Positions 56,742-59,700 of a stretch of 64,000 bases of DNA are shown in pieces. The stretch is from an uncultured Candidatus Peribacteria bacterium. Lineage in GTDB: Bacteria > Patescibacteriota > Gracilibacteria > Absconditabacterales > Absconditicoccaceae. Under the pieces are notes generated by a model. It saw only the letters and a list, made by a program, of their open reading frames with translations, was not told where the DNA came from and ran no database searches. The DNA is taken from contig CAZJFP010000001.1 in the NCBI GenBank assembly GCA_964545415.1, positions 9,786 to 73,785 on the forward strand, given 5' to 3'. The position numbers and the translations under genes were made by a program. Numbering within the stretch: the first letter of the stretch is position 1; the number at the start of each line of letters is the position of its first letter.

Positions 56742-59700
56742 TTACCTTTGTTCTTTGGGCTTTTGTATTTTATGTACACTCACATCACCACGACCATCAG
56801 TTTCTTGTTCAAGGAACACATGATATGTATTATTATTCTTATCATATTCAAAATCTCTTAGAAGCTTAAATTTTTCTCATTTCGCTAATGTTATTTCAGA
56901 TTCCCACAGATAATTTGACTCACTCATAAGAATAATTCACTTAGGATTTTTTATATGTAATACTACCCCCACATTACGCTTATCGAAGTTTCACATTCCT
57001 CCTACTCTATCATCTACATATGATTTGCTTATTGAAGCTGAAGTAATATTTTCATTTATAATACTTCAGTTTTTTTGTATATTTTCCAAAAACACATTTC
57101 TTTCTGTATCTGTTTGGAATCTTATTACTCTATAGATATCTCATGTAGGATTTTCTCATATTGTTGCCTGTATATTTTTCACTCTATCTGATTGATCCAG
57201 CATTCCTTGAGAAAAAGCCCTGTTTCCAATATCCATCATCATATAATCCAACATCATACTGTTTGGATTATTCTCTCTACTCCACATCATATGATTACTA
57301 ACAGATTCATATCTATGAGTTGCATATGTCTTAAGTGCCCATACATATAATGATTTCTGTCAAAAATCGAATGCAGATTGAGATAGAAATCCCATAAATA
57401 TCATTTTTTGTTCTATTGTCATATTTTGATACTGTTCTGTTTGAAAAAAGTCAAATATTGCATCGTTTACGTCCTCATGCGTCATATGACTTCATTCGAC
57501 TTTCTTTATATTTTTACAAACATCAGAAAAATTTTTGAAAACAACATCTGCAACATATTCATAATCTTTTTTTCTTCTCACATCACTTTCTCGTAACATA
57601 TTTATCGCATCATTGGAGAACTTAACATTTCTGTCTTCCATAAATTTCACAACATCTTCACCTGTTCAAAAATTTCTATTTAATATTTTATCTATCAATC
57701 TTGTTTTTTTATTTTCTACGGATTTTTTTTTCTTAATAGTATCTAACCATCATCATTTAGACGCATTAGATTGCAGAATACGCTTTCCCATAAATTCGCT
57801 GAAAAAATCAATAAGATTACTAGCGGATATATTAGAAATATATATATCATTATATCTATCGACAGTAAATAGTGATTTAAGAAAATCATAAGATCATGCG
57901 TCATATCTATAATAATCTAGCTGCAATCTATATATCTCTCATGCAGACAATCATGTTTCCCTGGTTATATTTGACATTTTTTCCATATATTCATCAAACT
58001 TTTCTTGAGTCAATGTTCATTGAACTTTTTCACCAATAACATCGTTTGTTAATATAAATTTAGCTATCAGGCTTTCATTACCTACAATTCAGATAGACTC
58101 TAGCATATCAGGCATAATTATTTTAGCAATATCATGTTGTGCATCTTTTGACAATCACATGTTTATTCATAATGCTTTAGGAATATCATGTATCAATATC
58201 ATTTTTCATAATAATTCCTTATATTTTGCGTTTGTTGATTTTTGAAATTCTTGCATCACTAATCATGTATGATTTTTCAACGTCTCATGTCATACATCCG
58301 GCACGCCAACAGACAGGTTAAATATCTTTTGAAAAGCACCATAATCTGGATTATTTTCATTGAATATAGCATCTTTTAACTCTTCAAATGATTTTCACTT
58401 GTAATCTGCTAATGTAGATTTTAAAAGCATATAATCTTGATTACCATTAAGCTCTGTTAATAAATTTTCTACTTCATAAGTCATCACTACATCATTCACA
58501 TCCGAGACATCATTCCCCGGCTGTCCACAGATACCATATTCCAACAATACCCTAATCTGCTCACTCGTAAATCCTGCCTTACTCAAAATATCTGCTCTCG
58601 CCTTAATCTGAGTAAAATTGAGATTGTAGAGAGTTCCTTCTTGATTGTGAGCAGTGAGGATAGCTTGCTGCTGTTCGGGAGTTAATTTAATTCATAACAA
58701 TTCCTCTGCTTTTAAGAGTCTTGGTCCGTCTGCGAGGATGGCGTTGGCTTTTACGATTTCTGGGTCGATACTGGGTTGTATTTCTCAACTAAATTTTGGA
58801 ATGAAGTCCAAAAGGCTATCTTTTGCTCCATCTACTAACATCTCAATATACATAAATATTTCAACCTTTTCTTTTTCTGTGATTTTTTGTAATCATTTTT
58901 CATCCAAAATAGATCTTTCTGTATCAACCAAATACTGTAAATATTCATCTAACTGTCCTTGACTATACAGACGAGAAAGTTCTATCACATTTTCTTCTGC
59001 AACAAGGTAATCATTAAGTTCTTTATCAAGAATTGGATTTCATTCCGTATCTAGTTCGTTTTCTCATTTATCATCTTGTTTTATATAAGATCTATACGCA
59101 TCTATTCCTGATTGCGTATTAGTATGATAGACAAATGATTTTCATATTTCAATCTTACTACCTATATATGTTATTATTATTTCGTAAAATTCATAATCAT
59201 CTTCTCTCTTATTTTTTATTTTTTCATATGAAGCGCCTCTATTTTTTTGTAACGTGTTTTCAAACAAAAAATGATGCATTTCATGTCCAAAAACTGCTAA
59301 AGTCAGTTTATCTCACGATAATGTTCCATATCATCATTCTCACCACAAAGAACCATCATTTCGATTTTCACGTGTAGGATTCATTTTAAGTGTTTTGGTC
59401 CCCTTATCATATGCTCACCTAGAATCTAAAGATGGGTCTATAACTATCCTTGTTCACGTTCTATTCATAGCCTCTATGATATCTTTATATGTAGGATCTG
59501 CAGAAAATTTTTCTATAAGTATTTCTTGATATTTAGTAGGGTTAGTTTGTGCTAATTCGTTTGTGAGTATTTGTTGATTATCTCCCATCATCTCCACATC
59601 GCTTTCATCAAACATCCCATCCTTATTTACATCCAAGGTTTTTGCTTCTGCCTGTCCACAGATTCCACTTTCTATAAGCTTTCTAAGAGGAAGCTTTTCC

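Follow-up and report, generated by a model that had tools for sequence, protein, structure and literature searches.

A divergent R-S-E ADP-ribosyltransferase domain predicted at the C-terminus of a giant membrane protein from a bacterium using genetic code 25

Toward the end of the 64,000-nucleotide stretch of DNA analysed here (from contig CAZJFP010000001.1 of an uncultured Candidatus Peribacteria bacterium; hereafter the window), the minus strand encodes the tail of a giant protein. An initial annotation had read three short peptides of this tail, namely DIYRVIRF, ITSASISK and an E-x-E followed by a hydrophobic strand, as the catalytic triad of an R-S-E ADP-ribosyltransferase (ART). The question raised by this locus is whether the giant protein really ends in such an enzyme and, if so, on what the enzyme would act. 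We propose that the C-terminus is a divergent R-S-E ART domain, probably arginine-directed, which is displayed as a payload on a membrane carrier and serves as an effector. We give this overall explanation a probability of about 85%.

Genetic code and the giant reading frame

In the standard bacterial code, no long open reading frame (ORF) spans 56745-57160, where the three peptides had been reported. When TGA is read as a sense codon, a single unbroken minus-strand frame extends from beyond position 64000 down to a stop codon at 56742-56744. This giant ORF (56742-64000, minus strand) exists only in code 25. It has 2,418 codons inside the window, and its 59 in-frame TGA codons are read as Gly, seven of them within the last 210 residues of the protein. 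In the code-25 translation, the three peptides are found within 56745-57160 on the minus strand just as the initial annotation had placed them, and the motif spacing that it gave also holds (30 residues from R2290 to S2320 and 44 residues from S2322 to E2366). The use of code 25, with TGA as Gly, by this organism is proven by the rpoB (48312-52127) and rpoC (44371-48219) genes of the same window, because their TGA codons sit on universally conserved Gly residues (GgLFCESIFgP, SgARgS and FHE[G]G).

Residues are numbered here within the window, residue 1 being the Ile at 63998-63996 on the minus strand; full-length numbers are higher by three. The full protein has 2,421 residues and starts with MADILEK..., the first three codons (Met-Ala-Asp) lying just past the end of the window. 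This start was taken from a Logan contig (L016, run SRR8925788) located by an exact look-up of the ribosomal protein L10 sequence of the window. The contig is 100% identical to window positions 48711-64000 and provides a further 2.4 kb upstream. The run is listed as a pig-manure anaerobic digester (PMC13644194).

The giant protein was also found by exact look-up as a public record (P0172) in which TGA is translated as Trp and for which no Pfam match is recorded. The Gly-recoded version is not present in the same public protein collection. Both this record and the public gene call of the ortholog described below (P0010) read TGA as Trp, and thus have Trp at conserved Gly positions.

Profile, motif and model evidence for the C-terminal domain

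The triad on which the initial annotation rested is weak on its own, because the bare pattern [FYWH]R-x(20-45)-SxS-x(30-60)-ExE occurs in 10% of shuffles of the 2,418-residue protein (0.55% with hydrophobic context). We therefore relied on profile comparisons covering a longer region. In Pfam, PF03496 (ADPrib_exo_Tox) was matched with 13.0 bits (E=0.066) by the last 268 residues and, as the top match, with 14.9 bits (E=0.017) by a 150-residue core. Since no homolog of the domain was found with which to build a query profile, the profile was built on the family side. Three proteins annotated with PF03496 were made into a profile, which gave 15,753 matches in a library of 1.84 billion representative proteins, and 453 near-full-length domains cut from the best 150 of these were used for a custom ART hidden Markov model (HMM). 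With growing family profiles, the E-value went from 0.59 (three sequences, hhalign) to 0.005 (10-sequence HMM) and 6e-5 (20-sequence HMM). The 453-domain HMM matched the giant protein with 31.0 bits (E=1.4e-11), aligning residues 2164-2386 (56841-57509, minus strand) to model positions 58-222 of 242.

The controls for this match were clean. Among the 339 six-frame code-25 ORFs of the window and the ortholog, only the giant ORF matches the 453-domain HMM (E=4.8e-9; next best 0.3), and 5,000 shuffles of the domain score 10.2 bits at most. A phmmer search of the domain against the 453 ART domains gave 25 matches at E<0.06, whereas reversed decoys reached only E=0.7, and all pairwise phmmer alignments to ARTs share the E-x-E register. 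Comparison with the ART family by hhalign gave E-values of 5e-5 to 8e-5, with 148 columns aligned at E=8e-5. Six of the nearest neighbour domains are verified PF03496 members (49-87 bits), and the identity of the domain to family members is 11-20%. These comparisons show the C-terminal ~200 residues to be a predicted divergent member of the PF03496 clade (C3, VIP2, iota and MuF-fused enzymes) of R-S-E mono-ADP-ribosyltransferases.

A PHROG scan of the domain returned only phrog_595 ('head maturation protease'; E=9.3e-5, profile positions 363-503 of 513). The reference phage ARTs in this comparison were the C3 exoenzyme of Clostridium phage c-st, an EDIN-like gene and gp4 of Microbacterium phage IAmGroot, which is a MuF-ART fusion. 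The ART domain of IAmGroot gp4 matches the same segment of phrog_595 (346-498, E=4e-9), and the match of the giant protein to this profile is therefore an ART match. The Alt-like profile phrog_802, which C3 does touch, was not matched in the scan. Thus, the likeness to C2-, C3- and VIP2-type ARTs that the initial annotation had claimed is borne out by the profiles and the catalytic columns, but its likeness to Alt-type enzymes stands only at the superfamily level.

We then investigated the individual motifs. The conserved core of the ART domain covers residues ~2215-2400 (56799-57356). Its N-lobe helix motif, ALKTYATHRYESVSNHM (57288-57338, minus strand), is the equivalent of the family motif A-h-x-x-Y-T-G-x-x-Y-x-x-I-N-x-x-L-R and is also aligned by hhalign. 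The helix residues in place are A2221, L2222, Y2225 (Y in 92% of the family), Y2230 (Y 54%), V2233, M2237 (L 90%) and R2241 (R 82%). The Arg motif DIYRVIRF (57117-57140, minus strand; residues 2287-2294) corresponds to strand β1. The aromatic-Arg proposed for this motif is present, but the motif holds two Arg residues. The candidate for the catalytic Arg, whose family column is 84% Arg, is either R2290 (57129-57131) or R2293 (57120-57122): HMMER places R2293 (VIRF) in this column and MAFFT places R2290 (IYR) there.

The S-T-S equivalent is ITSASISK (57024-57047, minus strand; residues 2318-2325), in which S2320-A2321-S2322 occupy family columns with S 97%, T 81% or A 10%, and S 66% or T 25%. 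The serine run TSASISKS holds three overlapping S-x-S patterns. The 20-sequence HMM chose S-K-S, whereas the 453-domain HMM chose S-A-S, in agreement with the initial annotation. The S-A-S variant is also found in bona fide PF03496 neighbours (GFTSASLD and GYVSASVS). After strand β3, an N-P-K-G turn (56937-56948, minus strand) is the equivalent of the PN-loop region, with P2352 (P 88%), K2353 (K 44%) and the TGA-encoded G2354 (G 93%).

The ARTT loop and catalytic motif lie in NYLWESEITLAKGEKFKLL (56859-56915, minus strand; residues 2362-2380). The loop reads S2361-N-Y2363-L-W-E2366-S-E2368, followed by I-T-L-A-K-G(TGA)-E-K-F, and Y2363 is the aromatic residue of ARTT turn 1. In the family columns, E2366 corresponds to E 86% or Q 9% and E2368 to E 99%; L2371 (82%), G2374 (62%) and F2377 (F or Y 67%) follow. 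The R-S-E family columns at the β1 Arg, the β2 S-x-S, the [Q/E]-x-E and the ARTT aromatic residue are thus all occupied. The alignment shows that every residue that the family uses for NAD+ binding and catalysis has a putative counterpart in the domain, namely the β1 Arg, S-A-S and S-x-Y-x-x-E-x-E. Of the seven TGA codons in the domain, those at residues 2311, 2354 and 2374 align with columns in which Gly predominates in the family (86%, 93% and 62%, respectively). This serves as a cross-check that favours both the code and the homology.

The order and spacing of all these motifs are like those of the PF03496 toxins (C3/EDIN, iota Ia, CDTa, C2-I, VIP2, Certhrax, Vis and HopU1). Unlike these toxins, the giant protein has an insertion of ~20 residues after the N-lobe helix and another of ~8-10 residues after S-A-S.

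A structure model was produced with AlphaFold (AF2) from a 55-sequence ART-family alignment, the query having Trp instead of Gly at the seven TGA positions. Its mean pLDDT was 74.7 (80-93 in the core) and its pTM 0.62. The model has a helical N-lobe, a strand (model residues 118-125) over DIYRVIRF that covers both Arg residues, S-A-S in β2 and a strand starting at E2368. In a Foldseek search of the PDB with this family-guided model, the top 50 matches were all R-S-E ARTs (probability 1.00, E-values from 2e-6 to 1.5e-4 with the best at 1.9e-6, TM-scores 0.3-0.5), a comparison that is partly circular since the alignment was made of ARTs. The matches include Vis, iota Ia, Certhrax, CDTa, HopU1, C3bot1/2, C3lim, C3larvin, VIP2, C2-I and a Listeria ART-ARH toxin. 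Profile searches and Foldseek both return ARTs, and the predicted ART fold is corroborated, not independently proven, by the model.

In a separate observation, the best ART-profile matches among the 1.84 billion representatives (P0011-P0020) are proteins of 2,000-4,000 residues with 6-11 tandem ART domains. One such tandem-ART protein, from Nocardiopsis lucentensis (WP_206538968.1), is annotated just as 'ADP-ribosyltransferase'.

The carrier, its ortholog and the surrounding locus

From N- to C-terminus, the carrier has ~1,000 residues, two or three membrane helices and a further ~1,300 residues. In the membrane-spanning region (60612-60968, minus strand), Kyte-Doolittle analysis gives two strong hydrophobic helices within residues 1011-1057 and a third, weaker one at 1106-1129. 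No signal peptide is present in the full-length N-terminus. Outside the ART region, library matches of the carrier are limited to a sub-threshold dockerin-like loop.

A single homolog of the carrier (P0010) was found in the collections searched, and scans of GTDB and metagenomes with the N-terminal region gave no orthologs beyond it. This ortholog, from Logan run SRR29243431 (contig L005), has 2,098 residues, is likewise TGA-recoded and is followed by rplJ and rplL. It is 55% identical to the giant protein over residues 6-498 and 26% identical in the membrane region, where three hydrophobic helices are clearly seen in the ortholog. The module that marks the end of the similarity has ~70 residues and closes with LLEYGICGQ (58521-58724, minus strand): BLASTP aligns residues 1747-1851 of the giant protein with 1509-1619 of the ortholog at 35% identity and detects no similarity C-terminal of the module. 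After the module, the giant protein has ~590 residues with the ART domain last. The last ~480 residues of the ortholog are unrelated to the giant protein and contain neither an ART nor any Pfam domain. The ortholog shares the N-terminal and membrane parts and the rplJ synteny with the giant protein but has an unrelated C-terminus, which suggests that the payload region is swapped like a cassette, as happens in polymorphic toxins.

The module itself, LLE[SY]G[IL]CG[QK], belongs to no known family and occurs twice in the giant protein and once in the ortholog. The other occurrence in the giant protein is a shorter copy of the module end, LRKLIESGICGQ (59652-59687, minus strand). The first module copy is followed by an acidic dockerin/EF-hand-like loop (Dockerin_1, sub-threshold, E=0.01-0.02). 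HINT/intein-like cleavage at the G|C of GICGQ was considered and rejected, as there is no HINT-block similarity; the sequence that follows looks dockerin/EF-hand-like (sub-threshold). Between the two GICGQ modules lies an orphan region of ~290 residues with an HExxH motif (HEMHH; 59271-59285, minus strand; residues 1572-1576). This region is missing from the ortholog and has no Pfam match; a second payload and a releasing peptidase are both conceivable roles for it. An HD-domain reading of residues 1902-1944 (58167-58295, minus strand), where H...H...LIHDIPK is similar to an HD-phosphohydrolase signature, found no profile support.

At the other end of the protein, an N-terminal block (63096-63341, minus strand; residues 220-301) is near-identical to that of the ortholog. 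Around this block, the nucleotide identity is 86% over 620 nt (L016 3028-3648 against L005 5275-5895). In the rest of the giant gene blastn detects nothing against the ortholog gene, and the adjoining rplJ genes are only 72% identical. The near-identical block could reflect very strong constraint or recent recombination.

We then investigated the genetic locus. The giant gene is followed by rplJ, rplL, rpsB, a gene for a small membrane protein, tsf, an rpsF/rpsR-like gene, rpoB and rpoC. The 316-bp AT-rich spacer between its stop codon and rplJ holds a ribosomal protein L10 leader (RF00557; 56556-56686, minus strand), for which cmscan gives 47.3 bits (gathering score 44; E=4.7e-6). Because the leader fills the spacer, there is no downstream immunity ORF, and no ORF was found in any frame of 56427-56741. 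Directly upstream of the giant gene, after a 5-bp gap and just outside the window, is an ORF of 95 residues predicted to be helical (L016 2109-2396; L005 4422-4709). It belongs to no Pfam family and is 65% identical between the two loci whatever the C-terminal payload, and may encode a partner or a chaperone. No ADP-ribosylhydrolase or macro-domain immunity candidate was found at window positions 3-6718, 12927-17719 or 23303-24685, or in the upstream ORFs of 115 and 95 residues.

Elsewhere in the window, two adjoining plus-strand ORFs (35342-38200 and 38204-42928; 953 and 1,575 residues in code 25) share nearly the same C-terminus of ~60 residues (...YKLMKVRYFS[ST]L.EL..YI.KNN...). A plus-strand region at 3-4819 encodes a MATCAP-like peptidase, two ATP-grasp (RimK-like) proteins and a GNAT acetyltransferase, and its G+C content of 30% is below that of the middle of the window.

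Mechanism, alternative explanations and significance

By analogy with the family, the Arg and S-x-S of the domain would hold NAD+, E2368 would be the catalytic glutamate, and the domain would transfer ADP-ribose from NAD+ onto a protein side chain. Arginine is the most likely acceptor, since the domain has E-x-E and not Q-x-E. E-x-E motifs go with arginine acceptors, an association seen in iota, C2, VIP2, CDTa, SpvB and the ecto-ARTs, and C3-type Q-x-E enzymes modify asparagine. In its E-x-E the giant protein is like the arginine-specific PF03496 members (iota, C2, VIP2 and CDTa). Judging from the context, the carrier probably anchors the payload at the surface of the code-25 (Gracilibacteria/Absconditabacteria-type) cell, and the ART may act on another cell (host, prey or competitor) following contact or proteolytic release.

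Such an arrangement resembles several known systems in part. The PF03496 toxins are free secreted enzymes or A components of binary toxins, whereas this domain ends a membrane protein of 2,421 residues in a host with code 25. Phage MuF-ART fusions such as IAmGroot gp4 likewise have an ART at the C-terminus of a larger carrier and share the phrog_595 segment, which is the best match of the domain in the libraries. However, the giant protein has no MuF or head-morphogenesis domain and is chromosomal, beside rplJ-rplL-rpoBC, with no phage genes around it. Tox-ART-RSE is a known payload type of polymorphic toxins (Zhang et al. 2012, PMC3482391). Like the polymorphic toxins of that survey, the giant protein has a large carrier, a C-terminal ART, a conserved N-terminal part and a C-terminus that has an unrelated counterpart in the ortholog at the same locus. 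Unlike them, it has no recognised T5SS, T6SS, T7SS, RHS, PVC or MuF trafficking domain, no detected HINT or other known releasing peptidase and no downstream immunity gene, and its code-25 lineage is not among the lineages surveyed (PMC3482391). Predatory, epibiotic relatives among the Absconditabacteria have giant membrane proteins, as described for Vampirococcus lugosii (PMC8080830). These belong to a code-25-type lineage and are multi-thousand-residue, membrane-located and largely unannotated, like the giant protein. In contrast, the portions of that account considered here interpret them as adhesins with WD40/TPR/PKD-type interaction domains and mention no enzymatic toxin payload (PMC8080830).

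Several observations weigh against the explanation of the C-terminus as an ART effector on a membrane carrier. At the level of the domain, the PF03496 score is below the gathering cutoff (14.9 against 23.4 bits), an NCBIfam search of the domain returned nothing, and the sole match of a PDB sequence search was HUB1 (E=0.58), which is spurious. With the C-terminal 268 residues, no homolog was found in a word-indexed search of 5.8 billion proteins, in GTDB genomes, JGI metagenomes or IMG/VR, nor by tblastn of phages and plasmids, in which a hypothetical protein of a Vibrio phage (E=0.9) was dismissed as a chance match after inspection. The hhalign probability is just 60-67%. Ser2234 stands where 94% of the family have the Asn of the N-lobe helix, and where 71% have a Gly directly after the catalytic Arg, this protein has Phe or Val. 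A single-sequence AF2 model was uninformative (pLDDT 38), and the ART likeness of the family-guided model is partly built in by its multiple sequence alignment of ARTs, with Trp at the TGA sites and modest TM-scores. At the level of the carrier, Pfam, NCBIfam and PHROG recognised no trafficking, pre-toxin or releasing-peptidase domain, the L10 leader and rplJ follow the giant gene directly with no immunity gene in between, and cassette swapping rests on one ortholog.

The interpretation as a displayed effector can be taken further, although only tentatively. The carrier and its ortholog may represent an undescribed toxin-presentation scaffold with a cytoplasmic N-domain, an anchor and an extracellular arm, whose payloads would be bounded by LLExG[IL]CG and would intoxicate a host or prey during epibiotic attachment. 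The payloads of the giant protein would then be the HExxH peptidase-like region and the arginine-specific ART. An immunity gene would be unneeded if the producer lacks the target or if the payload never enters the producer cytoplasm.

Alternatively, a true ART-fold enzyme might be directed at the producer itself and act as a regulator inside the cell, like DraT or phage Alt/Mod, and we give this some small chance. The lack of an immunity gene after the giant gene, the full-length N-terminus without a signal peptide and the housekeeping surroundings (rplJ, rplL, rpsB, tsf and rpoBC) are all in its favour, and with just two firm membrane helices the C-terminus could stay cytoplasmic. However, the closest relatives of the domain are PF03496 domains of toxin type, many of them C-terminal on very large proteins, and the wholesale replacement of the payload in the ortholog is unexpected for a housekeeping regulator. 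The three helices of the ortholog would also put its N- and C-termini on opposite sides of the membrane.

An active R-S-E ART might also have an acceptor other than protein arginine, either a nucleic-acid base, as for pierisin/ScARP-type enzymes, or a small molecule, as for Vis acting on free arginine or agmatine. The top Foldseek match is indeed the Vis toxin, including a structure of its agmatine complex, and at such divergence specificity is unreadable from the sequence. Nevertheless, Foldseek scarcely separates the ARTs from one another (E-values from 2e-6 to 1e-4), by sequence profile the domain is closest to PF03496, a family in which the characterised members act on proteins, and E-x-E correlates with arginine acceptors. 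We regard a non-protein acceptor as improbable.

It is very improbable that the domain has an ART fold and is inactive, with a role in binding or as an adaptor comparable to that of the N-terminal ART-like domains of VIP2 and iota or domain 2 of anthrax lethal factor. Its low identity to the family (11-20%), its sub-threshold Pfam score and the substitutions at the helix Asn and at the Gly that comes after the Arg would fit such a role. Yet domains of this kind typically lose catalytic residues, whereas here all of them are kept, among them the Glu conserved in 99% of the family and the complete ARTT loop S-x-Y-x-x-E-x-E. Finally, a chance co-occurrence of motifs in an AT-rich, low-constraint tail with no ART domain, which might be argued from the bare triad in 10% of shuffles and the weak or sub-threshold matches of curated libraries, is effectively refuted by the 31-bit match (E=1.4e-11) with its clean window-wide and shuffle controls, by an alignment of ~220 residues that includes the N-lobe helix motif, and by the TGA-encoded Gly residues on family Gly columns.

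The enzyme class is well known, and the novelty is its extension to a new lineage and to an uncharacterised carrier, with no new mechanism. The parts worth attention are the carrier, the apparent cassette exchange and the missing downstream immunity gene. The finding also reveals a blind spot: the public translation (P0172) has Trp for TGA, and standard pipelines recover neither the right sequence nor the domain. How Gracilibacteria/Absconditabacteria-type bacteria harm or exploit their hosts is poorly understood, and their giant surface proteins have so far been read as adhesins. A predicted ART with intact catalytic positions at the tip of a giant protein would provide a concrete effector candidate for these bacteria.

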